Positions 26,153 to 52,109 of a DNA stretch of 64,000 bases are shown piece after piece. The DNA comes from an uncultured Leptospirales bacterium. GTDB lineage: Bacteria > Spirochaetota > UBA4802 > JAKQUI01. Location of the stretch: positions 753 to 64,752 of the forward strand of contig CAZZCF010000008.1 in assembly GCA_964652955.1 (NCBI GenBank). The letters run 5' to 3'. The position numbers were made by a program, and so were the translations under genes. The notes beneath the pieces are model-generated. The model made no database searches and had not been told where the DNA came from. It saw only the letters and a list, made by a program, of their open reading frames with translations. Every line of letters begins with the position of its first letter. Within the stretch, counting starts at the first letter, position 1.

Positions 26153-26904
26153 CTCGTATTATTGCAGTTGCTGGAAAGGGAGGAACCGGTAAGACAACCG
26201 TTTCATCGTTGATAATACGCTCACTGGTAAAGCGTGGCGAAACTCCCATTCTCGCTATTGATGCTGATCCCAACTCAAATCTTGCGGAATCTATCGGTCT
26301 TAACGTGCAGGATACTATCGGAAGCATGCTCGCCGATTTTCTTCGCACGCGGGCGGCGATCCCGCAGGGGATGACCAGACAGTCCTTTCTGGAGCTCAAG
26401 CTGCATCAGATTCTGAAAGAGGGAAGGGATATCGATATGCTTGCCATGGGGTGTCCCGAGGGACCCGGATGTTATTGTTCGGTTAATGCTCTGTTGAAGA
26501 GCTATTTCGAGGATCTCTCGAAGAACTATAAGAATGTTGTGGTTGACAATGAAGCCGGTATGGAGCATTTTAGCAGAAAGACCGCGAATGAGATAGATGT
26601 ACTCATATTCGTTTCAAACTATACGATGAAGGGGCTCAGGACGATTGAGACAATCTCTTCCATGATAGAAGAGCTGAAAATCGATGTTCGGGAGCAATAC
26701 CTTCTGGTGAGCAAAACGCCTGAGGATCTCAACGGTGAATTCATGAAGAGAATAGAAGAAATGCAGATCCCGTACCTCGGGAACATCGTAAGTGATTCGC
26801 GTATTGAAGAGTCGGACATAAGCGGCACACCGCTTATTGAGCTTCCGGATGATTCGGTTGCGGTACAGAGCATTGATTCAATGATGAACAGGATTTTACA
26901 CTGA
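26149..26904 (+). CDS. cooC: CODH/ACS nickel-insertion ATPase (CooC/AcsF)
   Basis: GKGGTGKTT, IDADPNSNL, GPGCYC, VDNEAGMEH.SR. Confidence 0.92.
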   Translation: MTRIIAVAGKGGTGKTTVSSLIIRSLVKRGETPILAIDADPNSNLAESIGLNVQDTIGSMLADFLRTRAAIPQGMTRQSFLELKLHQILKEGRDIDMLAMGCPEGPGCYCSVNALLKSYFEDLSKNYKNVVVDNEAGMEHFSRKTANEIDVLIFVSNYTMKGLRTIETISSMIEELKIDVREQYLLVSKTPEDLNGEFMKRIEEMQIPYLGNIVSDSRIEESDISGTPLIELPDDSVAVQSIDSMMNRILH

Positions 26905-26970
26905 TTGTTTTTATTCTCATGTTAATGTGTTGGTTTTCATGCTGAAATAATTAACCAAAGGGAGGAACGT

Positions 26971-29260: not shown

Positions 29261-29281
29261 TTATTTAAAGGAGGATTTTAA

Positions 29282-31231: not shown

Positions 31232-31279
31232 TATACGAGCAGCGTTTTACAACAATAACCTTTCTACAGGAGGAGCAAA

Positions 31280-33484
31280 GTGTCTAAAATAATAGCTTCA
31301 GCAGCCATCAGAGGCGCTCACAAGATAGTAGAGAGAGCTGATAAGAAGATAAAAGAGGCCATAGATAAATTCGGCCCCAATCAGGAAGTGGCTTTCCCGA
31401 ACACGGGATACTATCTCCCTGTTATCTATGGCATTACCGGAGAGAAGGTCGAGAAGCTCGGTGATATGGAGGGGGTACTGAAGATAAGTAAAAATCTTCT
31501 CCCGCCCTTTGTCAAGGAGAAGCATCACCTCCCGTATCTCGGTCCGGTGCTCGATGCAGGTATGGCGACCTTCTTCGCCGAGGAGATGATAGAGGCGATA
31601 AAGTATATCGAAAACCCGAATATCTATGTTCAGGGTGAGGATCCCACGGATGATAATATCTGGCTCGGGGCGGCAGATGATGTTATTCTGAGAAAGAGAG
31701 GCGTCGAGTTCGTTGACGGAACGGCTCCCGGATTTGCCGCCATGCTCGGTGCGCCGGAGGATCCGGAAGTTGCCTCGAAGCTCGCCCTGGAGCTTCAGGA
31801 GAAGAACCTCTATGTCTTTATGGCATCCGATACGGATGGCAGAACCATGTCGGAACAGCTGGTTCAGCAGGGGGTGCAGATCGGGTGGCCAACACGACTG
31901 GTCTCCTTCGGCCCCGAAACCAGCTCCGCGATATTCGCTATCGGTTTCGCGACGCGGGCCGCCATGTCCTTCGGGGGAATTGAGGCGGGTGACTATAGAA
32001 GGATTCTCATCTATAACAAGGACAGAATTTTTGCGTTCGCCATAACTTTCGGTACTGTAAACGATGAGTGGTACGCAAACGGTGCGGGATGTATTAACTG
32101 GGGATTTCCCGTTATCACCGATTCGCCGACACCTCAGATTCTGCCGACCGGTATCTGTACCTACGAACATGTCGTGGCCAACATTCCATATAATGACATC
32201 GTCGCTAAGGCCATCGAGGTGCGGGGACTCAAGGTTACCGTATCCAAGGTTCCGGTACCCGTTTCATACGGCCCGGCTTTCGAGGGTGAGCGTGTTCGCG
32301 GTGACGATATCTATCTTGAAGCCGGCGGCGGCAGAACGCATGCGGTTGAGCTGGTTACCTCTGCTGATATGGACAAGGTGACCGATGGCAAGATTGAGGT
32401 CGTCGGACCGGATGTGACGGATGTCGAGCCTGGAAGCCAGCTTCCCCTCGCTATCTATGTCGAGGTTGCCGGTCGTGAAATGCAGGACGACTTTGAGCCG
32501 ATTCTCGAGCGGCAGATACACCATCTCATCAACTATGCTCAGGGGACGATGCATATCGGTCAGCGCGATATTGCATGGCTTCGTGTCAGTAAACAGGCGG
32601 TCGAGAAGGGATTCAAGCTCTCCAACCTCGGTGATATTCTGCATGCGAAATTCCATCAGGATTTCGGCACCATCTTCGACAAGGTGCAGATAACCATTTA
32701 CACCGAAGAGGACAAGGTCAATGAGATTCTCGAAAAGGCCAGGGGAATATATAAGCAAAGGGATGATAGAATTGCGGGCATGACCGATGAAGACACCGAT
32801 CCCTTCTACTCCTGTACGCTGTGCCAGTCCTTTGCGCCGAATCACGTCTGTATTGTAACCCCTGAGCGGACCGGTCTCTGTGGAGCCTATAACTGGCTTG
32901 ACTGCAAGGCGTCGTTTGAGATAAATCCTACCGGTCCGAATCAGCCGGTTCCCAAGGGTGATGTTATTGATGCCAAATTCGGACAGTGGAAAGGAACCAA
33001 TGAGTTTGTTGCCAAGGCGTCACGCGGCAATGTTACGATCGTTGATGCATACAGCATTATGAGAAACCCGATGACCTCATGCGGGTGCTTCGAATGTATC
33101 GCTGCGGTGCTTCCCAGCTGCAACGGTATCATGACCGTCGACCGGGATACATCTGTTATGACCCCCTGCGGGATGAAGTTCACCACCCTGGCGGGGACCG
33201 TTGGAGGTGGGAATGTCACGCCGGGATTTGTCGGGCACAGTAAGTACTATATTACGAGTAAAAAATTCATATTAGCCGAAGGTGGGCTGAAGCGAATGGT
33301 ATGGATGCCGAAATCTCTTAAAGAGGAGATAAAGGAGAGATTTCTTACGCGGGCTGAAGAGCTCGGTATTCCCGATCTTCTCGATCGAATTGCCGATGAA
33401 ACGGTTGCGACTACCGAGGAGGAGGTGCTGGCGTACATTACCGAGAAGAAGCATCCTGCGCTGGAGATGGAGTCTATCATTTAA
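31280..33484 (+). CDS. acsB: Acetyl-CoA synthase (bacterial type, with N-terminal domain)
   Basis: FPNTGYYLP, PAFEGERVR, YSCTLCQSFAPNHVC..PER.GLCGA, MTSCGCFEC A-cluster ligands; GTG start after AGGAG. Confidence 0.97.
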   Translation: MSKIIASAAIRGAHKIVERADKKIKEAIDKFGPNQEVAFPNTGYYLPVIYGITGEKVEKLGDMEGVLKISKNLLPPFVKEKHHLPYLGPVLDAGMATFFAEEMIEAIKYIENPNIYVQGEDPTDDNIWLGAADDVILRKRGVEFVDGTAPGFAAMLGAPEDPEVASKLALELQEKNLYVFMASDTDGRTMSEQLVQQGVQIGWPTRLVSFGPETSSAIFAIGFATRAAMSFGGIEAGDYRRILIYNKDRIFAFAITFGTVNDEWYANGAGCINWGFPVITDSPTPQILPTGICTYEHVVANIPYNDIVAKAIEVRGLKVTVSKVPVPVSYGPAFEGERVRGDDIYLEAGGGRTHAVELVTSADMDKVTDGKIEVVGPDVTDVEPGSQLPLAIYVEVAGREMQDDFEPILERQIHHLINYAQGTMHIGQRDIAWLRVSKQAVEKGFKLSNLGDILHAKFHQDFGTIFDKVQITIYTEEDKVNEILEKARGIYKQRDDRIAGMTDEDTDPFYSCTLCQSFAPNHVCIVTPERTGLCGAYNWLDCKASFEINPTGPNQPVPKGDVIDAKFGQWKGTNEFVAKASRGNVTIVDAYSIMRNPMTSCGCFECIAAVLPSCNGIMTVDRDTSVMTPCGMKFTTLAGTVGGGNVTPGFVGHSKYYITSKKFILAEGGLKRMVWMPKSLKEEIKERFLTRAEELGIPDLLDRIADETVATTEEEVLAYITEKKHPALEMESII

Positions 33485-33499
33485 GCGATACCGTATTCC

Positions 33500-33526
33500 T
33501 CCCGGCCCCGCAGAGCGGGGCCGGGA
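33500..33526. repeat. GC-rich 12-bp hairpin between acsB and acsC
   Basis: tcccggccccgc-aga-gcggggccggga; no U-tract. Confidence 0.8.
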
Positions 33527-33595
33527 ATCTACCAAGCGGAGAGAGATTATTTGCATTAATGGTTCACAGAAATAAGACATAAAGGAGAAATCGAG

Positions 33596-34933
33596 ATGGC
33601 GCTAACAGGAATACAGATTTATAAGTTGTTGCCACAGACTAACTGTGGTGATTGCGGTGTGCCCACCTGTCTCGCCTTTGCGATGAAACTCGCAGCAGGC
33701 CAGGCGGAGCTGAGCGCATGCCCGCATGTTTCGGAAGAGGCGAAGGAGCAACTCGGTGCTGCATCGGCACCTCCGGTGCTGCCGGTCACCATCGGGAAGA
33801 ATTTCAAGACCGGCGGTGAAACAGTGCTCTTCAGGCACGAAAAGACCTTTGTCAGTCCAACCGGTGTCGCGGTTCTCGTATCGGATAAAATGGATGATGC
33901 CGAAGTTGATAGAAAATTGAAGAATTTTAAAGAACTTCAATTCGAGCGGGTGGGAGTGATTCTGAAGTCGGATCTCATTGCGGTGAAGTCGGAAACCGGT
34001 GATGCGGCTGCTTTCGAAAAGCTGGTTGCTAAGGTAAAGGGTGCTGTTGAAGCAGGCATCATTTTAATGAGTGACAAGCCTGAGGTTCTTGAGGCCGGTG
34101 CGAAGCTTCTGGAAGGGGAAAAACCTCTCCTCTATGCTGCAACAAAGGATACGGTCGAGGCGGTTGGAAATATCGCCAAAGAGCAGAAGTGTCCCGTTGC
34201 GGTAAAGGGTGACGGCCTGGAAGATGTTATTGCGCTCACCGAGAAGCTCACGGAGATGGGGATCAAGGAGATCGTTATCGATACCGGTTCACGGAAGCTT
34301 AAAAAGGCATTTGAGGAACAGGTCATAATCAGGCGAGCTGCAATCAAGAATACCTTCAGACCGCTCGGATTCCCGACCATAACCTTCCCCTGCGAGATGA
34401 CGGACAATTTCCTGGAGGAAACCCTCATCGCATCGACCTTCATTGCGAAGTACAGCGGTATTGTGGTGCTTTCTGATCTTGCAGGCCACAGCCTCTTCCC
34501 GCTGCTGGTTGAGCGGATGAACATATTCACCGATCCGCAGCGGCCAATGGCCACCGAGGAGGGTATCTACGAGATTAACAATCCGGATGAGAATTCTCCG
34601 GTTCTTGTCACGACCAATTTCTCACTGACCTATTTTATTGTCATGGGTGAGATAGAGGCGAGCAGGGTTCCCACCTGGCTGCTGGTTATGGATACCGAGG
34701 GGCTTTCGGTCTTAACCGCCTGGGCAGCCGGTAAATTTGTTGCCGATGCTATCGCTCCCTTTGTGAAGAAGTGCGGAATTGCAGATAAGGTTAAGAATAA
34801 AACACTGGTGATTCCCGGGTATTCTGCAACGATAAGCGGAGAGCTCGAAGAGGAGCTTCCCGATTGGACTATTACCATTGGCCCGCGTGAGGCGGCGCAC
34901 ATTCCGGCGTTCCTGAAAGAGCAAAAAGCTTAG
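33596..34933 (+). CDS. acsC: Corrinoid Fe-S protein large subunit
   Basis: LPQTNCGDCGVPTCLAFAMKLA...CP, ETVLFRHEKTF, FTDPQRPM, TTNFSLTYF, SVLTAWAAGKF. Confidence 0.96.
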   Translation: MALTGIQIYKLLPQTNCGDCGVPTCLAFAMKLAAGQAELSACPHVSEEAKEQLGAASAPPVLPVTIGKNFKTGGETVLFRHEKTFVSPTGVAVLVSDKMDDAEVDRKLKNFKELQFERVGVILKSDLIAVKSETGDAAAFEKLVAKVKGAVEAGIILMSDKPEVLEAGAKLLEGEKPLLYAATKDTVEAVGNIAKEQKCPVAVKGDGLEDVIALTEKLTEMGIKEIVIDTGSRKLKKAFEEQVIIRRAAIKNTFRPLGFPTITFPCEMTDNFLEETLIASTFIAKYSGIVVLSDLAGHSLFPLLVERMNIFTDPQRPMATEEGIYEINNPDENSPVLVTTNFSLTYFIVMGEIEASRVPTWLLVMDTEGLSVLTAWAAGKFVADAIAPFVKKCGIADKVKNKTLVIPGYSATISGELEEELPDWTITIGPREAAHIPAFLKEQKA

Positions 34934-34954
34934 AACAGAATAGAGGTAAGAATA

Positions 34955-35842
34955 ATGGGAAAATTTATTCGAATCGGTGAAAATCTGAATGTTATGTCAA
35001 AGGTTCTCGGTCCGGCGATGAAGGAGCGAAACGCCGGCCCTATTCAGGAGATGGCAAAGCGTGAAGCTGAAAAGGGAGTTGATTATATTGATGTGAACAT
35101 AGGGCCTGCCAGAAAGGCAGGGGATGAGATGATGGAATGGCTTGTGAACACCATTCAGGAAGTAACGGATATTCCCCTTGCTCTTGATACAACAAATCTT
35201 GTCGCGATGGAAGCCGGCTTGAAGGCCAGTAAGGGTGGTGCTCTGATTAACTCAGTTTCGCTTCAGACCTCGCGGCTGATTCCCGGGCTAGAGCTGGCAG
35301 CAAAGTACAATGCGGACGTTATAGCCCTCCTGTGGAGCGATGATGGAATGCCACGCGATGCAAATGAGCGCGCGATGCACATTGTCGACTTCATGCACAA
35401 AGCGACTGAGATCGGTGTTCCCACCGAAAAGCTCTGGGTTGATCCCATTGTCACACCCGTATCCGTTGAGGTCAATCAGGTGAAGGCCTGTATTGAGTTT
35501 ATGGGCATGCTCAAGGATATTGCGCCTGAAGCAAAGTCCACATGCGGCCTGTCCAATGTATCGAATGGTGTTCCCGATGAGCTCAGGCACTGGTTGAATA
35601 TAACCTACCTCATCATGCTGATGAAGAATGGGCTCCATTCGGCCATTATCGATTCATTCGATGATGAGCTTACGTCCTTTGTGAGCGGCGAACGGGATGA
35701 CATTGTCAATCTCGTTCACCGGGTGATGGACGGCGAGAAGATTGATATGGGCTCCCTCAGTGATGAAGAGGTCAAGTTCGTTAAAACAGTGCGTGTCTTG
35801 ACGGGTGAGTCGCTGTTTTCAGATTCCTGGCTCGATATTTAA
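34955..35842 (+). CDS. acsE: Methyl-THF:corrinoid Fe-S protein methyltransferase
   Basis: IGENLN, IDVNIGP, LDTTN..AMEAGL, INS, DPIV.P, CGLSNVSNG pterin-binding barrel motifs. Confidence 0.92.
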   Translation: MGKFIRIGENLNVMSKVLGPAMKERNAGPIQEMAKREAEKGVDYIDVNIGPARKAGDEMMEWLVNTIQEVTDIPLALDTTNLVAMEAGLKASKGGALINSVSLQTSRLIPGLELAAKYNADVIALLWSDDGMPRDANERAMHIVDFMHKATEIGVPTEKLWVDPIVTPVSVEVNQVKACIEFMGMLKDIAPEAKSTCGLSNVSNGVPDELRHWLNITYLIMLMKNGLHSAIIDSFDDELTSFVSGERDDIVNLVHRVMDGEKIDMGSLSDEEVKFVKTVRVLTGESLFSDSWLDI

Positions 35843-35926
35843 GTATTCAGCAAAACCGGGAGACAGCATCCCGGCTCCCGGTAGGAAAGTTCTGTGCTTG
35901 AGAGAAGCGAAAGTTGAAGTTGAAAA

Positions 35927-36604
35927 ATGGTTGATACACAGGCGAATTCTGAAGGAGCCTCATCGATTAAGCCGGGAGGGCAGAAAAGTACTTACGAATC
36001 AGCTTATACGGAGGCTGTTGCAAAGCTTTCAGAACGCACTGTCGAAGCGATAGCAGAGAAGAGCGGTTCGCGGATCGGCGAGAAGGATGGCATCACCTTC
36101 ATCACGGTTCCTTTTTTAGATGATGAAATCGATATATTCTTTCCCGATATATCCTTTCGCTATCAACGAAGGGATGATACGGTGCCGCTGTGGCTTCAGG
36201 TACTCGTTCTTCACTATCTCCTTGCTGCGACGGGTGTAACGGAGACGGGCGTTCAGATAACCTTCAAACAGCTTAAAGGGGGAATGGCGTATTATCCGGT
36301 TTTTCAGAAGAGGGCCATTACCCCCCTTATTAACACCTTCGGCGAGCATCTCGAGGATTTCATTACATTCGGCGTTATGATAGGGGGCACCAGGGCTGAG
36401 CACGGGGACTATGCGCTCACCTTCAGGGCATTTCCCTACGTTGCGGTAACCTTTGTTATCTGGGAGGGGGATGAAGATTTTCCACCTGCCGGGAATGTTA
36501 TTTTTGATTCGTCGGTTGAACAGTATCTTACCTCGGATGATGTCGCCATGCTCTGTACCATGCTTGCTGTGATGATTATAAAGAAGAAGTTTGAGAGAGA
36601 ATGA
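35927..36604 (+). CDS. DUF3786 domain protein
   Basis: LVLHYLL.A, ITFKQL.GG..Y...FQKRA..PL, FP.VAVTFVIWEGDEDFP.AGN.IFD; typical neighbour of acs genes. Confidence 0.85.
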   Translation: MVDTQANSEGASSIKPGGQKSTYESAYTEAVAKLSERTVEAIAEKSGSRIGEKDGITFITVPFLDDEIDIFFPDISFRYQRRDDTVPLWLQVLVLHYLLAATGVTETGVQITFKQLKGGMAYYPVFQKRAITPLINTFGEHLEDFITFGVMIGGTRAEHGDYALTFRAFPYVAVTFVIWEGDEDFPPAGNVIFDSSVEQYLTSDDVAMLCTMLAVMIIKKKFERE

Positions 36605-37362
36605 TGAAACTGGCAATTACCGGAAAAGGGGGTGTCGGAAAGACAACCCTGGCCGCGCTCCTCGTGCAGCATCTTGCCGAAGAGGGGAAGCGGGTTATTG
36701 CAATTGATGCCGATCCGGATGCCAATCTCGGTCTGGCGCTGGGATTGTCGGGCACGAAGGACATCGTGCCCATTGCGGAGATGGAATCACTGATTTCAGA
36801 GCGAACGGGATCCAAGCCGGGCGTCTATGGGACCTATTTTAAATTGAATCCGAAGGTTGACGATCTCCCGGAAAAACTCTGGCTCGAGAAGGGAAACATC
36901 CGGCTGATGGTCATGGGTGGTGTCAAGAAGGGAGGCAGCGGATGTGCCTGTCCAGAAAATACCCTTCTGAAAACGCTCATTTCCCATCTGATTTTCTTTC
37001 GCGATGATGTTGTGGTTATGGATATGGAAGCGGGTATTGAGCACCTCGGAAGGGGAACCGCTTCTGCGATGGACATGTTCATCGTGGTTGTTGAGCCGGG
37101 GAAGCGGAGCATAGAGACTGCTGAGCGAATACAGGTTCTCGCACGGGATATCGGATTGCAGAATATCGTCGTGGTGGGGAATAAGATTCGGGGACCGAAT
37201 GATGAGGAGGTGATACGGCAGAGCCTCACCGGGATGGAAGTTATCGGATTTCTCCCCTACGATGAAGCGCTTGTTGAGGCTGATCTCAAAGGAGATCCTG
37301 CGCCTGTGGCTTACTCGGAGACGGTCAGAGTGATACTGGAACGCATTCGTGATGTATCGTAA
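36601..37362 (+). CDS. cooC: Second CooC-type ATPase
   Basis: MKLAITGKGGVGKTT, DADPDANL, FKLNPKVDD.P, GGSGCACPEN, DMEAGIEHLGRGTA. Confidence 0.93.
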   Translation: MMKLAITGKGGVGKTTLAALLVQHLAEEGKRVIAIDADPDANLGLALGLSGTKDIVPIAEMESLISERTGSKPGVYGTYFKLNPKVDDLPEKLWLEKGNIRLMVMGGVKKGGSGCACPENTLLKTLISHLIFFRDDVVVMDMEAGIEHLGRGTASAMDMFIVVVEPGKRSIETAERIQVLARDIGLQNIVVVGNKIRGPNDEEVIRQSLTGMEVIGFLPYDEALVEADLKGDPAPVAYSETVRVILERIRDVS

Positions 37363-37459: not shown

Positions 37460-38146
37460 ATGTACGAATTTGTCCGCGGACCATTGATGTGGATTTCTTT
37501 TATCATTTTTATCGTGGGGCTGAGCTATCAGCTCTACCGGCTCATAACCCTGACGCGCAGTAAGGATATCGTTCGAATCGGTGATGATGAGGAGCCCCCT
37601 CCCCGCATTTCAAAACTCATCTGGAAACGCCTTGTCAGGAAAATAAAAGACTGGTCGGTGATGAGGAAGGGAACCATTCTGGGCACCCAGCCGCTCCTCG
37701 CACTCCTGACCACTGTTTTTCACATCTGCCTTATCATCACTCCGCTTTTTCTCGTGGCGCATAATGTTCTCCTCTTTGAATCATGGCATTGCAGCCTCCC
37801 CAGTTTTGCGGAGCGAACAACCGATATTTTAACCGTTATTGTTCTTCTCGGTGCGTCGATATTTCTTATCCGCCGTTTATTCGTGCCTCGTGTCAGGGCG
37901 ATATCCTCGCTGTACGATTATCTTCTTCTCCTTATCACCCTGGCGCCATTTATCACCGGTTATATGGCCTATCACCAGATGATGGATTATGAGACCATTA
38001 TTATCGCTCATATACTTGCGGGCGAGATAATGCTTGTGGCAATCGGGGTGACAAAACTCAGTCATATGATATTTTACTTTTTCGTGCGGTTTTTTATTGG
38101 AAGTGAATACAGTTTCCGGGGTGGAAACAGAACATGGCAATACTAG
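37460..38146 (+). CDS. NarI-like diheme cytochrome b membrane subunit (TmcC/HmcE-like)
   Basis: MYEFVRGPLMWISFIIF start, about five TM segments, and four His in TM context (VFHIC, VAHNV, IAHIL, LSHMI). Confidence 0.85.
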   Translation: MYEFVRGPLMWISFIIFIVGLSYQLYRLITLTRSKDIVRIGDDEEPPPRISKLIWKRLVRKIKDWSVMRKGTILGTQPLLALLTTVFHICLIITPLFLVAHNVLLFESWHCSLPSFAERTTDILTVIVLLGASIFLIRRLFVPRVRAISSLYDYLLLLITLAPFITGYMAYHQMMDYETIIIAHILAGEIMLVAIGVTKLSHMIFYFFVRFFIGSEYSFRGGNRTWQY

Positions 38147-38580
38147 TGAAGGGAGCAAAAGAGATGGAAGCAGTACATGACGCTGATGAGCGGCCGGTTG
38201 ATACCGAAACCATCAGGAAAATGCTCAAGCAGAAGAAGAGGATGAAATTGTTTCTCTCCATCTGTGCTTCCTGCGGGTTTTGTGCCGATAGCTGTTTTCT
38301 ATATCGAAATCATCAGGATCCCAAGTACATGCCTTCGTATAAGGCGATTAACTCATTGGGCAAGCTCTTCAAAAAACGGGGAAAGGTGGATCGAAAGACT
38401 CTCGAGGAGATGAGTGAGCTCATCTATGGGCGCTGTGTGATGTGCCGCCGCTGTTATTGCCCGCTGGGTATCGATATTTCGAGTATGATTTCATGGGCCC
38501 GAACCATCTGTCGTACGCAGGGGGTCTACGAACGGTATGATGAGGATGCGATGGGGTATGGGAAAGAGATTGGGGCATGA
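38134..38580 (+). CDS. Short 2x[4Fe-4S] protein: TmcB/HmcF/DsrK-like N-terminal domain without CCG domains
   Basis: CASCGFCADSC...PSYK and CVMCRRCYCPLGIDI; only 148 aa, and the next gene starts 13 nt after the stop. Confidence 0.82.
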   Translation: MAILVKGAKEMEAVHDADERPVDTETIRKMLKQKKRMKLFLSICASCGFCADSCFLYRNHQDPKYMPSYKAINSLGKLFKKRGKVDRKTLEEMSELIYGRCVMCRRCYCPLGIDISSMISWARTICRTQGVYERYDEDAMGYGKEIGA

Positions 38581-38593
38581 AGGGGTATCAAGG

Positions 38594-39001
38594 ATGAAAC
38601 GTTTCGGTATGGGAGTATGTATCATTGCTGTTTTCGGTATCGTATCGCTGCTCGTGGCGCAGCCTGATAGTATCGTTATCAATAACGTTGAGGTTTATGG
38701 GACGAAGAATCGTCCGGCGGTAGCCTTCCCCCATTTATTGCACATGGAGAGCATCGCCTGTACCGACTGTCATCACTGGTATGCGGCGAACGGAAAAAAT
38801 ATGCTCGATGAGAGCAAGCTGGAAGAGGGGAAACCTGGCATCAAGTGTCGCGACTGTCACTGGAAGCAGGGAAGACGAGAGGTTCGATATTCTCTCATGG
38901 AGGCATATCATCTGCAGTGCATGGGGTGTCACGGCAGGATGAAGAGGGACGGCAAGAAAACAGGACCGCGGCTCTGCGGCGAATGCCACCCCTGGAAGTA
39001 A
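38594..39001 (+). CDS. Periplasmic tetraheme class III cytochrome c (TmcA/type II c3-like)
   Basis: Signal peptide, VAFPHLLH, and four CxxCH motifs (CTDCH, CRDCH, CMGCH, CGECH) with GPR before the last. Confidence 0.9.
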   Translation: MKRFGMGVCIIAVFGIVSLLVAQPDSIVINNVEVYGTKNRPAVAFPHLLHMESIACTDCHHWYAANGKNMLDESKLEEGKPGIKCRDCHWKQGRREVRYSLMEAYHLQCMGCHGRMKRDGKKTGPRLCGECHPWK

Positions 39002-39026
39002 TGTTGATACAGTATGGGAGGCGTAC

Positions 39027-39701
39027 ATGGTAATAGCTGATTGCAAACCGATTGAAGAGATCAAGGATATGATCAAGGATTATAAGCGGGTGCTGAACGT
39101 CGGTTGTGCGGGATGCACAGCTGTCTGTCTCGTTGGCGGCCAGAAAGAGGTCGACATCTTAAATGCGAAGCTTATAAAATCATTCAAGGAAGATTCCAAA
39201 TCGATACAGATCGATGGGTACACCGTTGAACGGCAGTGTGAGATGGAGTTCATTGCCGAACTGGATGAGATGAAGGATCAGTACGATGCGATAATCTCTA
39301 TGGCATGTGGTGCGGGCGTTCAATTTGTCGCCGAACGGTACCCCGATAAGCCGGTATACCCCGCTCTCAATACCACCTTCATCGGTGTCAACAGGGATGT
39401 GGGGTGGTATGAGGAGAAGTGCCGATCCTGTGGTGATTGTCAGCTCGCCTATACCGGCGGCATCTGTCCGGTGACGCGGTGCGCGAAAGGCCTTTTCAAC
39501 GGGCCCTGCGGCGGTACGCAGGCCGGCGGAAAGTGCGAGGTTGATAAAAACGTTCCCTGTGCCTGGTATGAAATCTGCGAGCGGTTAAAGGCTCAGGGAA
39601 GGCTGGATAATATTACGAAGATACGGGTTCCGATGAACTGGAAGAATCAGGTTCAGGGAACTCTTGTCCTTGAAGCGTACAAGGACCGATACACGACCTA
39701 G
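39027..39701 (+). CDS. metV: Methylene-THF reductase small subunit
   Basis: GCAGC...C..GG, ERQCE, ACGAGVQ, EKCRSCGDC.L..TGGICPVTRCAKGLFNGPCGG, CEV....PCAW. Confidence 0.92.
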   Translation: MVIADCKPIEEIKDMIKDYKRVLNVGCAGCTAVCLVGGQKEVDILNAKLIKSFKEDSKSIQIDGYTVERQCEMEFIAELDEMKDQYDAIISMACGAGVQFVAERYPDKPVYPALNTTFIGVNRDVGWYEEKCRSCGDCQLAYTGGICPVTRCAKGLFNGPCGGTQAGGKCEVDKNVPCAWYEICERLKAQGRLDNITKIRVPMNWKNQVQGTLVLEAYKDRYTT

Positions 39702-39817
39702 AATGATGGAGCTTGATGCTGATGCAGACCTTTTCCTGTCATCGAACGACATCTGCCGCAGCGGAGAAGGTGTGTAGGATGCAGTGTTAAACTTTCAGAG
39801 AAGAAGGGCATATCAAT

Positions 39818-40747
39818 ATGAAAGCAGAAAGCAGACTTGAGAAGTTACTCAATGCAGGTGAGTTTGTAATTACTGGCGAGCTCGGCCCGCCCAAGGGGAA
39901 TGATATTGAGGTTATCAGTAAGAAAGCGGAGATGCTCAAAGGAAATGTTGACGCCGTCAATATTACCGATAATCAGACAGCGGTGGTCAGGATGTCCAGT
40001 ATCGGAGCGAGTGCGCTTGTTGTTCAACTGGGAATGGAACCGGTTATGCAGATGGTCTGCCGTGATCGGAATCGCATCGCGATGCAGAGCGACATACTCG
40101 GCGCAACGGCACTGGGAATACGCAATATGCTCTGTTTAAGCGGAGACCATCAGACCTTCGGTAATCAGCCCTATTCGAAGAATGTCTACGATATTGACTC
40201 CATTCAGCTCATCGGAGTGGTAAAGCGGATGCGCGATGAGAAAAAAATTCTCGATGTTGAAGAAGAGATGGAAGGCGACCTGAAGATATTTATCGGCGCT
40301 GCGGCGAATCCCTTTGCAGAGCCCTTTGATTTTCGACCGCTGCGGCTCAAGAAGAAGGTTGAAGCTGGCGTTGATTTTATACAGACGCAGTGCATTTACG
40401 ATATGAAGATGTTCAAGGAGTTTATGAAGCAGGTCAGGGACCTGGGCCTGCATGAGAAGTGCTACATCCTTGCCGGGGTGACTCCCCTTAAGTCCGGAGG
40501 TATGACGCGATATATGGCAAAGAATGTGGCCGGGATAATTATACCCGATGAGATTGTCGATCGGATGGTCAATGCGCCGAAGGGACAGGGTGCTGAAGAG
40601 GGGATAAAGCTCTGCTGCGAGCAGATACAGGAGTTGCGCGAGATCGAGGGCGTTCACGGCATACACCTCATGGCAATCGAGTGGGAACACCGGGTTGCCG
40701 AGATCGTCGAGCGCGCGGGATTGCTCCCCCGCCCGACTGTTGATTGA
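39818..40747 (+). CDS. metF: Methylene-THF reductase catalytic subunit
   Basis: ITGELGPPKG, NITDNQTAVVRMSS, CRDRNRIAMQSD.LGA, LCLSGDH, GVDFIQTQ, GIHLMAI. Confidence 0.95.
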   Translation: MKAESRLEKLLNAGEFVITGELGPPKGNDIEVISKKAEMLKGNVDAVNITDNQTAVVRMSSIGASALVVQLGMEPVMQMVCRDRNRIAMQSDILGATALGIRNMLCLSGDHQTFGNQPYSKNVYDIDSIQLIGVVKRMRDEKKILDVEEEMEGDLKIFIGAAANPFAEPFDFRPLRLKKKVEAGVDFIQTQCIYDMKMFKEFMKQVRDLGLHEKCYILAGVTPLKSGGMTRYMAKNVAGIIIPDEIVDRMVNAPKGQGAEEGIKLCCEQIQELREIEGVHGIHLMAIEWEHRVAEIVERAGLLPRPTVD

Positions 40748-41813: not shown

Positions 41814-43190
41814 ATGGAGCGTCTGAAAGTGCAATTCAACGACCGGTATAAGACAGTCATCATTGGCATTCTGATCTCCATATCGATTGGCGCAATCTTC
41901 TACTTTCACATCTTTCTCAACGTCGGGAAGGTGTTCACACAGTTTTTTTACATTCCTATCATTTTGAGCTCGCTCTGGTGGCAGCGGAAGGGTATTGTGG
42001 TTGCTGTTGTTTTCGGAGGGTTGCTTATACTGAGCAATTATTTTTTGCGGGATAACAGTCAACCGCTCAATGACTCTTTACGGGCGCTGTTTTTTATCGT
42101 CGTCTCCTACGTGGTGGCTGTTCTGAGTGAGCGGGAAGCGAGATGGAGAGAGGAGATCGCCCGCCACCTTGCCGAGATAAGCAGAACAAATCTCCAGTTG
42201 AAACAGGAGGTCACCGAGCGCTGCAATGCCGAGAAGATCTACTATGCGATTCTCAATGTGACAACCGAATCGATAATCATGATAGACACGAACGGCGTAA
42301 TACTGACAATTAACGAGATAGGAGCGACCAGGTTCGGTATGCGGCAGGATGAGATTCTCGGGAAATCACTGTATGACTTCTTCCCTCCCGAGGTGGCGCA
42401 ATCCCGGAAGAAGAGAATACTGGAGGTTATCTCATCCAGAAAGGGTATTCGCTTTCAGGATGAACGGGATAATGTCTTCTTCGACATCAATCTCTATCCC
42501 GTCTTCGATGAAGGCACGGTAAAGAGAATTGCGCTCTTCGCAAGGGATATCACACCCATTATAAAGCTGCAGAAGGAGATTATTACTATCAGCGAGAATG
42601 AGCGTCAGGTACTCGGCCAGGATCTCCACGATGATCTCGGTCAGTATCTCACCGGAATCAAATATATGGTGACCAGTCTGAAGCAGAAGATGATTGAGCG
42701 GAGTTATCCCGAGGTTGACGAAGTTGTTGAGATATCATCTCATATCGGAAATGCCATTGATCGAATACGGCGGCTGGCACGAAATATGTGTCCCGTTGCC
42801 CTTGATGAGAATGGGCTCATCGTCGGACTCGAGGAGATGTGCCAGGAGGTTGAGCAGATCTTCAATATCTCCTGTACGGTGCACGCCCGGGGGAAAATCG
42901 ATTTCGACAATCGTGATGCATCAATTCATCTGTACTACATAGCGCAGGAATCCATCAATAATGCCCTCAAGCACGGGAATGCCAGCCACATCGCGGTTCT
43001 CCTGAGCCGGGATGATTCCCGGGTGCGCATGAGAATTGAAAACGATATCGGGTATCACGAGGAGATGCCGAAGAAGGGGAAGGGTATCGGAATCGAGATA
43101 ATGAGATACCGGGCCAATTTAATCGGCGCTGATATTGATTTTCTGGAGAGCGCCGAACGGTATGTTGTTGACCTCAGGTTGAAGGTGTAG
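41814..43190 (+). CDS. Membrane PAS sensor histidine kinase (HisKA_3, NarX/UhpB type)
   Basis: N-terminal TM bundle, PAS domain, LGQDLHDDLGQ H-box, QESINNALKHG, GIGI..MRYRA.LIG. Confidence 0.9.
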   Translation: MERLKVQFNDRYKTVIIGILISISIGAIFYFHIFLNVGKVFTQFFYIPIILSSLWWQRKGIVVAVVFGGLLILSNYFLRDNSQPLNDSLRALFFIVVSYVVAVLSEREARWREEIARHLAEISRTNLQLKQEVTERCNAEKIYYAILNVTTESIIMIDTNGVILTINEIGATRFGMRQDEILGKSLYDFFPPEVAQSRKKRILEVISSRKGIRFQDERDNVFFDINLYPVFDEGTVKRIALFARDITPIIKLQKEIITISENERQVLGQDLHDDLGQYLTGIKYMVTSLKQKMIERSYPEVDEVVEISSHIGNAIDRIRRLARNMCPVALDENGLIVGLEEMCQEVEQIFNISCTVHARGKIDFDNRDASIHLYYIAQESINNALKHGNASHIAVLLSRDDSRVRMRIENDIGYHEEMPKKGKGIGIEIMRYRANLIGADIDFLESAERYVVDLRLKV

Positions 43191-43196
43191 TCAATG

Positions 43197-43280
43197 GTGA
43201 CGGGAGATAAGTAACGAGTAACGAGTAACGAGTAACGGGTGACAGATGACTGGTTACATGTTACCGGTTACACGTCACAA
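43197..43280. repeat. Heptamer tandem repeat (12 units), internally quasi-palindromic
   Basis: gtgacgg gagataa (gtaacga)x3 gtaacgg gtgacag atgactg gttacat gttaccg gttacac gtcacaa; GTAAC units are followed by their reverse complement GTTAC. Confidence 0.85.
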
Positions 43281-43353
43281 AATAACAATCTGCGTTCATC
43301 TGAGGTTACACTTCCCTCAAAGGGGAATCACAGTATATGAGAGGCCTTTGAGA

Positions 43354-44025
43354 ATGGTCAAGAAGAGAGGGAAAGAGATAAAGATACTCATCGTTGACGA
43401 TCATCCCATCGTGAGGCGCGGTCTCAAGATGATCATAGAGAAAGAGGATGATCTGCGAGTATGTGCGGAAGCCGCGAACGCGAATGAAGCTATTAAGGCG
43501 ATCGTTGATAATAATCCTGACGTCGCCATTGTTGATATCTCGCTTGAGGGGAGCATCAACGGTATTGAGCTGGTAAAGGCAGTAAAAGATCGGTTTCCCG
43601 GCGTGATAGCGCTGGTCCTCTCGATGTACAATGAGTCATTGTATGCCGAGCGTGCCATTCGAGCAGGGGCGAGCGGGTATGTAATGAAAAAGGAAGCTGA
43701 TGATAACATTATTGCCGCCATCCGAATGGTCCTCACCGGTGAACTCTATCTGAGCAGCTCCATGTCAAAGAGCATTGTTCAGAAATTGTTGCATGCGCCG
43801 GTTGAAGGGGAGCACAGCCCGGAAAACGTCCTTTCCGATCGCGAGCTTGAGATATTTATGATGATCGGAAATGGAATGAGCATTCGTGAGATCGCATCGC
43901 GGCTCAGTCTCAGCCTGAACACGGTCGAAACGCATCGCAGGCATATTAAAGAGAAGATGCATTTCAGGGATTTAAATGAGCTGGTAAAGTATGCTGTGCA
44001 GTGGGTTTTTGTGCAGCACAGATGA
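43354..44025 (+). CDS. NarL/LuxR family response regulator
   Basis: ILIVDDHPIVRRGL, VAIVDISL, GASGYVMK, LSDRELEIF.MIG.G...EIA..L.LS..TVETHR..IK.K. The ORF-track extension to 43246 runs through the repeat and was discarded. Confidence 0.93.
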   Translation: MVKKRGKEIKILIVDDHPIVRRGLKMIIEKEDDLRVCAEAANANEAIKAIVDNNPDVAIVDISLEGSINGIELVKAVKDRFPGVIALVLSMYNESLYAERAIRAGASGYVMKKEADDNIIAAIRMVLTGELYLSSSMSKSIVQKLLHAPVEGEHSPENVLSDRELEIFMMIGNGMSIREIASRLSLSLNTVETHRRHIKEKMHFRDLNELVKYAVQWVFVQHR

Positions 44026-44365
44026 CCTATCACCATCACGCAATTTGTTATCACCCATCACAAAAATCGGTATATCTATTTTCACCCTCCCGTGAATTTA
44101 CATCTTCCCCTGAATGAATTACCTTATCGCTATACCCGGCCGATTATTCTACGCGGAAAGTGCATTCGACAAGAGTAATCATGCCGGAAGTAAATACGAA
44201 GCCCAAAGGGATTTACCCGTAGAGGTGGAGAGAGGCAGTTCGGTTTTTACACGGTGCCCATGATCATCGATTCGGTGCTGGCATTTCCGGTTATGAAAAA
44301 ATGCTTCGGAGGAGCGGATGTTCACTTGTGGGGATACGCCATACGGGAGGTTGGATGGACAACAC

Positions 44366-44731
44366 ATGGATACTGAGGATAAATACCGGACAATCATCGA
44401 GCGGTTCTCTGATGGTATTCTCGTTTTGCAAAATGGATTCGTCTCATTCCTGAATCCTGCCATTATGGAGATTACCGGTTTTACCTGGAAGGAGCTCTCG
44501 ATGCGTCCGGCGATAAAATTTGTTCATCCCGAGGATAGGCAACAGGTTCAAACGCTGTGCCAGCGTATTTCTGCGGAGGAGTTGGATACGTGCAAACTTG
44601 AGTTCAGGATTATCACCAGGGAGAAAGCGGAAAAGTGGGTATCGGTCAGGACAAACAGAATAGTCTGGGAAGATTCATCGGCACTGCTCGTTTTCCTGAC
44701 TGATCTATCAATACTGAGAAATGAGAAATGA
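44366..44731 (+). CDS. Stand-alone PAS domain protein
   Basis: KYRTIIE...DGILVLQ.G....LNPA..EITG, FVHPED, EFRIIT..KWV.V; start uncertain (44351/44366). Confidence 0.82.
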   Translation: MDTEDKYRTIIERFSDGILVLQNGFVSFLNPAIMEITGFTWKELSMRPAIKFVHPEDRQQVQTLCQRISAEELDTCKLEFRIITREKAEKWVSVRTNRIVWEDSSALLVFLTDLSILRNEK

Positions 44732-45016
44732 GCACCGGTTCTCGATTCAAATTGGTACTGATGTTGAAAGTAATTATGGTATTCGATGGCTATCACGTTT
44801 TTTGTTATTACTCATCACGTATATTGTTAGTGCTTAATTGTTGCTCTCGTGCATTGACATGGCGTGGTTATCGTTTGACAGTATATTTTGCACGGACCGA
44901 TGATGACATCGATGAATGTAACAGAGGAAATAGGATACACCGATCTCGTGCGCATTGTACCGGAGAAGAAAGGAACACTGTTCCTCCGGGAGAGATGCCA
45001 TGATGATGAGGAAAAG

Positions 45017-47548
45017 ATGAAGAAGACACTTCATAATTCCAGCATTGCCATCGTGGGGGGAGGGCGCGTCTGTAGGGCTATCCTCGAGATACTGTTGGGC
45101 GTTCATTTCCCCAATTACCATGTGCGGGTACTCGGTGTCGCCGATATTGATGAACAGGCTGAGGGCTTGCTCTTTGCCGGAGAAAAGGGAATTTTCGTTA
45201 CCAGCTTATACCAGGATCTCTTTGTGATCCGGGAACTGGACTTGATTATTGAATTGACCGGAGACAACAGGGTGCTGGCTGAATTGCGGGCAAACAAGCC
45301 GGATCGGTTGCGGTTGATTGACCACTTTGAGGCAATGACAGTCTGGGATTATCTGCAGATAGAGGAGAAATCGATCGAAATCAGAGATGAGCTGACGAAG
45401 ATGAACACTGTTGAGGAGATCGAAAAGCAATTTGATCATTTCGCGAAGGAGATCGCCGAAATTGTACAGGAACGAACAGAGCACCTCCAGGAGGTGGAGA
45501 AGGAGCTCGTTGAGCGGGAGCGGATTCTCGCGCAGATTGTTGAAGGGAATACCATTCCTACGTTTGTTATCGACCGCGATCATATCATAACTCACTGGAA
45601 CAGAGCATGTGAGACGCTTACCGGGTTTCCCGCCAGGGAAATGGTCGGAACCCGGAAGCAGTGGGTCCCTTTCTGGCAGAAGATGCGTCCGGTTATGGCT
45701 GATATTATCATCGATGAGATGCAGGAAAACGGTATCCGAAAATATTATGGTGACGACTGGCGCACCTCGGCGCTCATTGAAGGTGCCTATGAAGCTGAAG
45801 CGTTTTTCCCCAGCATCGGTGATGACGGGAAGTGGCTCTTTATCACTGCTGCGCCGATACGGGGACCCGAGGGCACAATTATGGGTGCCATTGAAACCCT
45901 CTGGGATAAAACCGACGATAAAAAGCGTGAAGAGGAGAAGGAGCGGCATAACCGGGAACTCTCGGCACTGTGCAGCATCACGACCGCATTGAGCTCATCA
46001 CTGGATCTGGAGGTTAAGTTGAATGCGGTGACCCGGGAGATATTCAAGAGCCTTCCGGTGGATGGCGTATGCATTTTCCTCCTGGAGAATGGCCATTTTG
46101 TGCTGCGATATTCGCATGGCATTTCGGATGCGCTCTGCAACCTCAACTGTACAGTTGCTGGCAGCAGTATCATCGAGCATGTTGTTGAAACGGGAGCGCT
46201 CACCATTTACGAGGATATCGAGGCGAGTGATGATACTGAGATAAGTTTACTGGCGCGGGAAAAATTTAAATCGCTGGCATATATACCTATCAGCGCAAAG
46301 GAGGGCAAAGTCTTCGGCGTAATCCGCATCGGAAGCAATGTTTCGAGGACGTATACGCATGAGGAGAGGAATATTCTGGAGCTAATCGGAAACCGTGTCG
46401 GGGTTGCAATCGAAAATTCAATTTTTTACGAGCAGTACAAAAAATCCGAGGAGAAGTACCGATCGCTCTTTGACAACGATCCCAATCCCATATTCATCAT
46501 CGATAGGGATTCTTTCGAGATACTCGATATGAACCGGCGGGCAGAGGATTGTTACGGTTTTTCGAAGGATGAGCTCCTCGGGAAATCGTTTCTCACGCTC
46601 GGTGAAGAGCGGGATGAGGAGATTATCCGTAAACTGCGTCAGCTCGATGAGGGAGAGTCTGTCCTCTTCTCGAAAAAGAGGCATTACCGAAAGGGGAGAA
46701 AAGTCTTCTTTGTGAACATCAATGTCTGTCATGTGATGTACAACGAAGGAGCCGCGCTCATTGCGACAACGACCGATATGAGCGAGAGCATTGAACGGGA
46801 GACGCAGCTAATCCAGGCGAGTAAAATGACCACACTGGGGACGATGGCGGCGGGGATGGCTCACGAGATAAATCAACCGCTCAATGTGATTCAGGTTGGC
46901 GCTGATTTCTTTCTGAAGAAGACAAGTCGGAATGAACCCATTGACTACGAAGAATTGCGCACGGTCGCTGCTGAAATAAGCAACAATGTGCAGCGGGCGG
47001 CCGATATAATCAGGCACATGAGGGATTTTTCACGGCAGTCTGATGTCGTTTCCACCAGATTGAATATCAACAAACCCATCCGCGATGTTTTTAAGGTTCT
47101 GGGGCAGCAGCTCCGGGTGCATCAGATTGAAGTTGTACTGGATCTGGATGACTCCATTCCCCTCATCAAGGCAGATCACAACCGGATGGAGCAGGTTTTT
47201 ATGAATCTGGTCACCAATGCCATGGATGCAATGGACGAGAAGGGGCTCATGGAGGAGGGAAACACATGGCAGCGACTCTTAACCATTCGTTCGTTTTATG
47301 ACGGAGATGTCGTTGTGACGGTTGCCGATACGGGGATTGGCATGTCAGCAGAGATTCAGGATAAGATATTCGAACCGTTTTTTACCACCAAAGAGGTTGG
47401 CAAAGGGACGGGATTGGGAATTAGCATCAGCTATGGAATCGTGAACGATTACGGTGGCACCATTACGGTGAAAAGCGAGGTACATAAGGGAACCACCTTT
47501 GAATTGCGATTCCCCTCGAGAGCCGAAAAACGCAGGAACAGAACATGA
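45017..47548 (+). CDS. Cytoplasmic sensor histidine kinase: Rossmann-like N-terminus, PAS, GAF, PAS, HisKA, HATPase
   Basis: IAIVGGGRVC..IL...VLGVADID...GL..A...GIF.T..Y.DL....LDLIIELTG; WNRACE.LTG PAS; GMAHEINQPL; [22 protein letters not shown] before ATG 45017. Confidence 0.9.
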   Translation: MKKTLHNSSIAIVGGGRVCRAILEILLGVHFPNYHVRVLGVADIDEQAEGLLFAGEKGIFVTSLYQDLFVIRELDLIIELTGDNRVLAELRANKPDRLRLIDHFEAMTVWDYLQIEEKSIEIRDELTKMNTVEEIEKQFDHFAKEIAEIVQERTEHLQEVEKELVERERILAQIVEGNTIPTFVIDRDHIITHWNRACETLTGFPAREMVGTRKQWVPFWQKMRPVMADIIIDEMQENGIRKYYGDDWRTSALIEGAYEAEAFFPSIGDDGKWLFITAAPIRGPEGTIMGAIETLWDKTDDKKREEEKERHNRELSALCSITTALSSSLDLEVKLNAVTREIFKSLPVDGVCIFLLENGHFVLRYSHGISDALCNLNCTVAGSSIIEHVVETGALTIYEDIEASDDTEISLLAREKFKSLAYIPISAKEGKVFGVIRIGSNVSRTYTHEERNILELIGNRVGVAIENSIFYEQYKKSEEKYRSLFDNDPNPIFIIDRDSFEILDMNRRAEDCYGFSKDELLGKSFLTLGEERDEEIIRKLRQLDEGESVLFSKKRHYRKGRKVFFVNINVCHVMYNEGAALIATTTDMSESIERETQLIQASKMTTLGTMAAGMAHEINQPLNVIQVGADFFLKKTSRNEPIDYEELRTVAAEISNNVQRAADIIRHMRDFSRQSDVVSTRLNINKPIRDVFKVLGQQLRVHQIEVVLDLDDSIPLIKADHNRMEQVFMNLVTNAMDAMDEKGLMEEGNTWQRLLTIRSFYDGDVVVTVADTGIGMSAEIQDKIFEPFFTTKEVGKGTGLGISISYGIVNDYGGTITVKSEVHKGTTFELRFPSRAEKRRNRT

Positions 47549-52055: not shown

Positions 52056-52109
52056 TGAGCGCAATGCTCGGAGCGGCTCAATCTCATTGCACACGAGGGA
52101 GATATCATA

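Follow-up and report, generated by a model that had tools for sequence, protein, structure and literature searches.

The electron partner of MetVF-type methylene-tetrahydrofolate (methylene-THF) reductases and the conservation of energy at the strongly exergonic step that they catalyze have been debated since the 1980s. A 64-kb stretch of DNA from an uncultured Leptospirales bacterium (64,000 nucleotides in total; hereafter referred to as the window) raises the question of whether such a partner might be encoded right next to the reductase: at positions 37460-40747, three genes for proteins resembling components of the Tmc and Hmc transmembrane electron-transfer complexes are followed by metV and metF. 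Our analysis of this five-gene module and of its relatives in other genomes suggests, with a probability that we put at roughly 65%, that the products of all five genes make up a single electron conduit of the Tmc/Hmc type in the membrane, with MetVF as its cytoplasmic head.

Organization of the five-gene module

All five genes are oriented head to tail on the + strand, and a Shine-Dalgarno-like purine run can be read from the sequence in front of each of them. The first gene (37460-38146) encodes a protein of 228 amino acids that belongs to the TmcC/HmcE-like membrane-bound diheme cytochromes b of the NarI family (NCBIfam, Pfam). It is followed by a gene ending at 38580 for a short protein with two [4Fe-4S] cluster motifs (NCBIfam, Pfam) and by a gene for a TmcA-like tetraheme cytochrome c3 of 135 amino acids (PF02085, NCBIfam), which extends from an ATG codon at 38594 to 39001, the mechanically called open reading frame (ORF) beginning at 38537. 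The fourth gene, metV (39027-39701), encodes the 224-amino-acid Fe-S subunit of a MetVF-type methylene-THF reductase (PF12225, E-value 5.6e-35), and the fifth, metF (39818-40747), its flavin-containing catalytic subunit of 309 amino acids (PF02219, E-value 6.3e-41). A MetF protein (PF02219) with an adjacent MetV protein (PF12225) is the hallmark of the MetVF-type reductases (types II-IV), and the corresponding catalytic activity is predicted for the pair encoded in the window.

Intervals of 13 and 25 nucleotides separate the end of the Fe-S gene from the start codon of the c3 gene and the c3 gene from metV, respectively, while 116 nucleotides lie between metV and metF. In the first-pass annotation of the window, the cytochrome b and Fe-S genes were taken to overlap by 13 nucleotides, and this holds if translation of the Fe-S protein begins at 38134 (148 amino acids). 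The more likely start, as read from the sequence, is the ATG codon at 38164, which is preceded by GAAGGGAG and would yield a protein of 138 amino acids; the database protein P0001, which is 99% identical to the short Fe-S protein, also comprises 138 amino acids. With a start at 38164, the overlap is replaced by a gap of 17 nucleotides after the cytochrome b gene. The remaining elements of that annotation, namely a TmcC-like diheme cytochrome b, a short Fe-S protein matching only the N-terminus of TmcB/HmcF/DsrK, a tetraheme cytochrome c3 and the intervals of 13 and 25 nucleotides, were borne out by NCBIfam and Pfam and by the sequence itself.

The annotation had also noted that TmcD, hdrABC/mvhD and rnfC2 are missing from the window, and we likewise found none of them among the scanned ORFs of at least 130 amino acids. 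Pfam domains of Hdr, MvhD (FlpD), RnfC and CCG proteins were absent from this ORF set; there was neither an HdrA (Pyr_redox_2) nor an HdrB (CCG) nor an MvhD (FlpD) protein, and the HdrC-like di-cluster protein of the module was the only product of this kind. As for TmcD, no gene is present on the + strand from the end of metF (40747) to position 41814, and the next gene encodes a 4HB_MCP sensor on the minus strand. An Rfam scan of the window gave no match.

A family of short Fe-S proteins without CCG domains

Among the NCBIfam models, the short Fe-S protein matched HmcF best (107 bits), followed by TmcB (91 bits) and DsrK (64 bits), in each case only over positions ~22-152, the N-terminal di-cluster part. 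Within the TmcB model (430 positions), only positions 22-141 were matched, and the score of 91 bits compares with a cut-off of 735 bits. Pfam detected the domains Fer4_8 (34 bits) and Fer4_17 (30 bits), both above their cut-offs, and gave no match to the CCG domain (PF02754) in this protein. A database search yielded 396 homologs; the best 120 of these 396 have lengths of 114-165 amino acids. When the search was conducted exhaustively with a profile, 15 clusters (at 50% identity) were recovered with E-values < 1e-30, and the longer TmcB/HmcF/DsrK-type proteins came only thereafter.

Eight cysteine residues are invariant in 56 out of 56 short Fe-S proteins. The first of the two cluster motifs is canonical; the second reads CxxCxxCxCP in every member of the family and is, among the 150 best representatives, exclusive to the short proteins, all longer relatives in this set, including those bearing CCG domains, carrying CxxCxxCxxxCP instead. 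Because of this private motif, the short Fe-S proteins appear to constitute a dedicated lineage, and we regard them as a genuine protein family and not as truncated versions of a longer one. A complete TmcB might be encoded elsewhere in the genome of the Leptospirales bacterium; given the family-wide data, this would be irrelevant to the role of the short protein.

The AlphaFold2 model of the short Fe-S protein (predicted local distance difference test score, pLDDT, 82.6) is all-helical. A Foldseek search with this model gave no significant match, the HdrC protein (7bkb_C) reaching a template modeling score of only 0.36, and PDB sequence searches returned no solved relative of either the short Fe-S protein or MetV. 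For MetV, the AlphaFold2 model (pLDDT 80.6) was uninformative, as its matches were confined to Rossmann-like lobes of a generic kind in periplasmic binding proteins.

Two representatives are natural fusions between a TmcC-like cytochrome b and the short Fe-S protein, namely P0123 (375 amino acids), which is 34% identical to the cytochrome b of the window over 235 amino acids, and P0127 (partial). In these proteins, the Fe-S part is attached to the C-terminus of the cytochrome. Because of these fusions, the separately encoded cytochrome b and short Fe-S protein are predicted to form a complex at the cytoplasmic C-terminus of the former. Over-long ORFs that had been considered as candidates for fusions of the short Fe-S protein to MetV turned out to be start-codon artefacts.

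Cofactor ligands and predicted topology

We counted residue conservation across relatives extracted from 88 loci. The cytochrome b scored with 193 bits against the NCBIfam model for TmcC (cut-off 240 bits) and with 174 bits against that for HmcE (cut-off 275 bits), and there were weak matches to DsrM and to the Pfam family Nitrate_red_gam. Because its TmcC score lies below the cut-off, it is most readily viewed as a member of a sister subfamily of TmcC and not as a TmcC equivalog. Four histidine residues (H88, H101, H184, H202) are invariant in 77 out of 77 relatives; H88 and H101 are positioned in the second hydrophobic segment (residues 81-104), and H184 and H202 in the fifth (residues 179-208). 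This four-histidine layout corresponds to the NarI pattern and predicts two bis-histidine hemes stacked across the membrane. The NarI/DsrM/HmcE cytochromes are typified by five transmembrane helices, of which helices II and V each contribute two histidines as ligands of two hemes b, and the protein from the window displays this arrangement, although its sequence matches to NarI itself are weak, both in Pfam and in a PDB sequence search. Hydropathy analysis combined with the positive-inside rule predicted five transmembrane segments and a cytoplasmic C-terminus, with the lysine- and arginine-rich regions located at residues 30-75, at residues 139-149 and in the C-terminal tail.

The cytochrome c3, a class III tetraheme cytochrome c whose nearest counterpart is TmcA, matched PF02085 with an E-value of 1.4e-15 and the NCBIfam model for TmcA with 80 bits, below the cut-off of 114 bits. 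Its four CxxCH motifs and four distal histidines are kept in 54-55 out of 55 relatives, and it possesses one signal-like hydrophobic segment at its N-terminus (residues 4-22). Thirteen cysteine residues of MetV are kept in ~76 out of 76 relatives. Hydrophobic segments are absent from MetF, MetV and the short Fe-S protein; hence, these three are predicted to reside in the cytoplasm, and the cytochrome c3 is predicted to be located outside of it. Collectively, the comparison with the Tmc, Hmc and Dsr profiles upholds the earlier assignment of the first three genes as a small Tmc-like set, in the sense that their products are Tmc/Hmc-like and stay below the equivalog cut-offs.

Conserved linkage with metVF across genomes

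A survey of 185,579 genomes, with one genome per species, revealed that the short Fe-S protein is encoded in at least 581 species genomes. The best 80 of these at least 581 genomes are mostly those of Desulfobacterales, Syntrophaceae and other Desulfobacterota, and they also comprise Spirochaetota, Myxococcota, one member of the Acidobacteriota and one of the Thermodesulfovibrionia. Among the cultured carriers are Desulfonema limicola and Desulfonema ishimotonii.

To count neighboring genes, the proteins of the window were mapped on 58 species-level loci for which at least 2.5 kb of sequence was present on both sides (full-flank loci). The cytochrome b gene is adjacent to the gene for the short Fe-S protein in each of them (58/58), and metV is found beside this pair in 57 of the 58 loci. 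A gene for a TmcA-like cytochrome c3 is present in 51 loci, and metF (at least 50% identity, within 3 kb) in 42. The order metF-cytochrome b-Fe-S-c3-metV (FCBAV) was observed in 28 loci, cytochrome b-Fe-S-c3-metV (CBAV) in nine, c3-metV-cytochrome b-Fe-S (AVCB) in six, the order found in the window (cytochrome b-Fe-S-c3-metV-metF; CBAVF) in five and cytochrome b-Fe-S-metV-metF (CBVF) in four; other orders occur as well. Hence, the gene set is retained although its order is permuted between lineages. In a Myxococcota metagenome-assembled genome (MAG) and in the isolate D. limicola, the module is located away from any Wood-Ljungdahl genes.

We also conducted the reverse test, for which three of the nearest MetV homologs encoded on long contigs served as starting points. 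Each of the three loci had an adjacent cytochrome b gene. Two of them also had a called gene for the short Fe-S protein; at the remaining locus (L088), the interval is obscured by the minus-strand gene calls. Because the same gene set is present in essentially every related locus that we examined, its recurrence is far beyond chance. The proposal that the Tmc-like genes belong with metVF had been made from the window alone, and a lack of conserved linkage in other genomes would have spoken strongly against it; the synteny of the NarI-like, short HdrC-like, c3 and metV genes (with or without metF) across phyla removes this objection.

Several loci deviate in their MetF or MetV complement. Syntrophaceae-type loci contain, besides an upstream metF with ~70% identity, a second, divergent metF paralog after metV (~35% identity, PF02219; L029:7625-8539), and a second metF occupies the same position in L032-L034, L036, L037, L039, L041, L043, L048, L063, L067, L070 and L076. 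L088 encodes a MetF::MetV fusion protein of 679 amino acids with MTHFR and PF12225 domains (L088:7373-9412), a few kb away from a module that has a separate metV gene and two metF genes. In an Acidobacteriota MAG (L045, 2051-5499), metF is followed by the genes for the cytochrome b, the Fe-S protein and the c3, then by an ORF of 161 amino acids with no Pfam match and by a sensor kinase gene.

An Hmc-type variant of the module

Seven of the 58 full-flank loci have no gene for a TmcA-like cytochrome c3. In most of the c3-less loci with enough downstream sequence, metF is followed directly by genes for HmcA, an HmcB-like and an HmcC/HybB-like protein (L012, L042, L055, L062, L064, L077 and L087; for instance, L087:3813-10635); L081 ends at the end of a contig, and L011 shows no cytochrome gene. 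The gene order in these Hmc-type loci is HmcE/TmcC-like, short Fe-S, metV, metF, HmcA, HmcB-like, HmcC/HybB-like. HmcA is a hexadecaheme cytochrome that scored with 426 bits, above the equivalog cut-off of 400 bits, while the HmcB-like product is a periplasmic Fe-S protein and the HmcC/HybB-like product a membrane protein of the NrfD family. The metVF genes are thus positioned between a pair of hmcE- and short hmcF-like genes on one side and hmcABC-like genes on the other. Because metVF lies inside an Hmc-type gene set, a placement otherwise hard to explain, MetVF would seem to be a subunit of the encoded complex. The module appears to exist in a Tmc-type and an Hmc-type form, mirroring the known relation between Tmc and Hmc.

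A proposed complex and its electron path

Our model builds on what is established here: the gene content, the cofactor-binding residues, the topology, the cytochrome b::Fe-S fusion and the linkage with metV and metF. The CCG domains of TmcB and HmcF, which serve in the reduction of DsrC or disulfides, would have been lost, and MetV and MetF would replace them as the catalytic head, with MetV, the known Fe-S adaptor of MetF, in their place. That MetVF might substitute for the missing CCG domains had been put forward in the first-pass annotation, and comparative genomics supports this idea through the CCG-less family, the linkage with metV and the placement of metVF in the Hmc-type loci. Because of the conserved ligands and the predicted topology, the geometry would permit a continuous chain. 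In this chain, electrons would be transferred from the periplasmic tetraheme c3 to the two bis-histidine hemes b of the five-helix cytochrome and on to the two [4Fe-4S] clusters that the short Fe-S subunit holds on the cytoplasmic side, from where the Fe-S clusters of MetV and the flavin of MetF would connect them to the methylene-THF/methyl-THF couple.

We infer the remaining features, namely a physical contact of MetV with the short Fe-S protein, the way in which electrons flow, the coupling stoichiometry and the energetics. In the reductive direction (CO2 fixation, acetogenesis), electrons from the periplasmic oxidation of H2 or formate would move inward; with proton release on the outer side of the membrane and proton uptake on the inner side, this would give a redox loop that might contribute up to ~2 H+ per two electrons. 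Electron transfer from H2 (-414 mV) to methylene-THF (-200 mV) provides ~41 kJ/mol, enough for ~2 H+ (PMC9430772). In the oxidative direction (acetyl-CoA oxidation in complete-oxidizing sulfate reducers and syntrophs), the membrane potential would pull electrons outward, so that methyl-THF oxidation (about -200 mV) would no longer face its barrier and the electrons would enter the pool of periplasmic cytochrome c; the oxidation of methyl-THF with NAD+ is a known barrier (PMC6295475, PMC9430772). A considerably wider claim can be derived from this scheme, namely that the redox loop generates a proton-motive force when electrons from periplasmic H2 or formate reduce methylene-THF, that the membrane potential drives a methyl-THF oxidation that is otherwise blocked in complete-oxidizing sulfate reducers and syntrophic acetate oxidizers, and that the module, which occurs in at least 581 species-level genomes, predominantly those of marine Desulfobacterales, represents a major unrecognized respiratory complex of anoxic carbon cycling and a fifth type of methylene-THF reductase. 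We advance this wider claim tentatively and rate its chances as somewhat below even.

A number of observations weigh against a single complex with MetVF as its head. The proposed interaction of the short Fe-S protein with MetV is deduced from comparative genomics, and no fusion of these two proteins was found among the ORFs of the loci and the top 120 MetV homologs. A scan for promoters and terminators gave no signal above chance that would delimit a transcription unit, and the spacing between metV and metF amounts to 116 nucleotides. No metF gene is present within 3 kb in about a quarter of the full-flank loci, for instance in Desulfonema, and L045 is the one full-flank locus that has no metV. 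The pairwise-identity matrices of the five proteins are positively correlated (Mantel test), with the top value of 0.69 for the short Fe-S protein versus MetV; this counts weakly in favor of the complex, since whatever genes are passed on together within a genome would show such a correlation. Furthermore, an outward flow of electrons into the c3 pool would cost membrane potential, and a benefit to sulfate reducers would depend on downstream complexes that are not seen here.

Other explanations can be offered for the same gene set. NarI-family cytochromes b act as quinol oxidases in nitrate reductase, so the same complex might use the menaquinone pool instead of, or besides, a periplasmic cytochrome c; it would then be a methyl-THF:menaquinone oxidoreductase with c3 as an accessory. 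The quinone site would have to be located in the NarI-type cytochrome b, whose match to NarI is weak, or in the HmcC/NrfD-like subunits of the Hmc-type variants, which belong to the family of subunits that bind quinones in Qrc and Hyb. The seven full-flank loci without a TmcA-like c3 would fit such an enzyme, electron transfer from methyl-THF (-200 mV) to menaquinone (-74 mV) would be exergonic, and membranes of Sporomusa ovata reduce anthraquinone-2,6-disulfonate (AQDS) with methyl-THF (PMC9430772). However, nearly all loci contain a gene for a cytochrome c, either tetraheme or HmcA-like. Moreover, TmcC and HmcE, the closest relatives, are components of complexes for which periplasmic c3, and not quinone, is regarded as the redox partner. 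On balance, we consider a quinone-linked enzyme rather unlikely.

The genes might also specify two co-regulated but separate systems, a small Tmc/Hmc-type conduit and a soluble MetVF enzyme, that communicate via ferredoxin or flavodoxin and form no stable supercomplex. In vitro, reduced ferredoxin serves type II MetVF enzymes as electron donor (PMC8760232). Ferredoxin could dock to a small helical di-cluster protein, and metF is often unlinked. Yet the linkage is specific to metV (57 of 58 loci), the gene for the Fe-S adaptor subunit, and not to ferredoxin genes; metVF is found inside the Hmc-type gene set, and the module stays intact outside of Wood-Ljungdahl clusters. Two separate systems are therefore improbable in our judgment. 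The lack of TmcD and CCG domains and the scores of the three Tmc-like proteins below the NCBIfam equivalog cut-offs might finally call to mind a degenerate or truncated Tmc operon that came to lie beside metVF by chance. Given the 396 homologs, the invariant ligands, the presence in at least 581 species genomes, the private motif and the near-universal linkage with metV, we attach hardly any credence to this idea, and its strict form, a truncated pseudogene, is ruled out by the family-wide conservation. The single membrane-bound complex headed by MetVF is the explanation that we favor.

Comparison with known systems

[quoted passage not shown] It differs from TmcABCD in that its Fe-S subunit has neither of the two CCG domains, for which a catalytic role towards DsrC is proposed, and in that TmcD, the tryptophan-rich subunit encoded in the tmc operon, is missing. 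The scores are below the cut-offs for TmcA, TmcB and TmcC, the second cluster motif is CxxCxxCxCP, and metV and metF are attached genetically. With no CCG domain, no TmcD and sub-threshold scores, the module appears to fall outside the TmcABCD group. HmcABCDEF of Desulfovibrio is mirrored in the c3-less variants, which contain HmcA, HmcB-, HmcC- and HmcE-like genes plus a fragment corresponding to the N-terminus of HmcF, whose NCBIfam model gave the top score for the short Fe-S protein. In contrast, the window contains the tetraheme Tmc-type form, the HmcF homolog comprises only ~135 amino acids and has no CCG domain, no HmcD was seen, and metVF separates the hmcEF-like from the hmcABC-like genes in the Hmc-type variants. 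DsrMK, HdrED and HmeCD have the same two-subunit membrane design, with a cytochrome b fold and an N-terminal ferredoxin domain; however, these systems end in a CCG site that reduces a disulfide or trisulfide, whereas the module has no CCG domain and a folate reductase is attached to it genetically.

The methylene-THF reductase (MTHFR) gene clusters of acetogens are grouped into type I (MetF), type II (MetVF), type III (MetVF with RnfC2) and type IV (MetVF with HdrCBA-MvhD), none of which includes a membrane protein (Oppinger et al., 2021; PMC8760232). With the type IV cluster HdrCBA-MvhD-MetVF of Moorella thermoacetica and S. ovata, the module shares the MetV/MetF core and, in the predicted electron path, an HdrC-like di-cluster protein. 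In the window, however, there is no HdrA, HdrB or MvhD among the scanned ORFs, so no module for flavin-based bifurcation, and while none of the type IV subunits of S. ovata has transmembrane helices, the cluster in the window encodes a cytochrome b of its own together with a c3 for the periplasm. The type III enzyme of Acetobacterium woodii (RnfC2-MetVF) resembles the module in having an adjacent, dedicated electron-input subunit and the MetV domain as an adaptor (PMC8760232). RnfC2 is a soluble, NADH-oxidizing flavoprotein and the enzyme is soluble and not energy-coupled, in contrast to the heme/Fe-S membrane conduit that would serve as the input of the module. With neither rnfC2 nor hdrCBA plus mvhD, the module can, on its gene content, be placed in neither type III nor type IV.

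According to a review from 2021, genome sequences gave no evidence for a membrane localization of these enzymes (PMC8578096). Kremp et al. (2022) subsequently showed that membranes of S. ovata catalyze H2-dependent methylene-THF reduction and that HdrCBA-MvhD-MetVF is membrane-attached; the membrane-integral partner was not identified in that study (PMC9430772). Hence, a membrane-linked MetVF chain is already known in concept, and what appears to be new here is the dedicated membrane anchor with its cytochrome module, which would function like a Tmc/Hmc conduit and like the chain of S. ovata. Our full-text literature search yielded no account of a linkage between Tmc/Hmc-like genes and metVF, though an earlier remark in the sulfate-reducer literature is possible; the genome paper on Desulfobacterium autotrophicum HRM2 labels the reductase 'MetF-ABC' in the legend of its figure 1, with no explanation, and reports two TmcBCA clusters, with no link stated between them (PMC2702500), and its authors may have come across a related arrangement. 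The conserved gene set is a strong, concrete and testable candidate for the sought-after membrane partner through which energy would be conserved at this step of the acetyl-CoA pathway. If our model is correct, it would explain how complete-oxidizing sulfate reducers and syntrophs dispose of the electrons of methyl-THF without NAD+, and it would imply that conduits of the Tmc/Hmc type are modular, with exchangeable cytoplasmic heads.

Genomic surroundings in the window

The module closes a Wood-Ljungdahl gene cluster. Directly upstream, on the + strand, lies the carbonyl-branch cluster (28313-37362; acsD, cooS, acsB, acsC, acsE, a DUF3786 gene and cooC, as assigned by Pfam), and further upstream are nuoEFG-like genes, fhs, a second cooC and folD (20578-27864; Pfam). 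The arrangement acsB-acsC-acsE-module is also present in loci of Spirochaetota and Desulfobacterota, and all five proteins have their closest relatives in Spirochaetota MAGs, such as that of 'Spirochaetes bacterium RBG_16_49_21' (57-83% identity), which makes a spirochete the most likely source of the window. The two genes for CooC-type maturation ATPases are located at 26149-26904 and 36601-37362, and the DUF3786 gene of the acs cluster at 35927-36604; among the spirochete relatives L005-L008, the placement of the DUF3786 and cooC genes relative to the module varies. Immediately 5' of fhs, genes for proteins resembling NuoE, NuoF and the N-terminal part of NuoG (20578-23714) represent a candidate module, linked to NAD(H) or ferredoxin, that may serve a different step of the pathway.

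Downstream of the module, the window contains genes for a histidine kinase (41814-43190), a LuxR-type regulator (43246-44025) and hybrid kinases (44888-49092). Histidine kinases with PAS domains and response regulators flank the module repeatedly in unrelated lineages (41814-49092 in the window, and L001, L029, L045, L086 and L088), and they may be dedicated regulators of it. At 51333-59224, a cluster for an Mrp-type multi-subunit cation/proton antiporter comprises MnhE, MnhB and three Proton_antipo_M subunits. On the minus strand at 5653-8140, a homocysteine-biosynthesis gene (HcyBio, PF01837) is accompanied by one for a NIL-domain ferredoxin, as in the methanogen-type sulfur-incorporation route to homocysteine. 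At 14497-18717, a GH15/trehalase-like gene on the minus strand adjoins a gene on the + strand for a fused trehalose-6-phosphate synthase/phosphatase, a pair that suggests the use of trehalose as an osmolyte.

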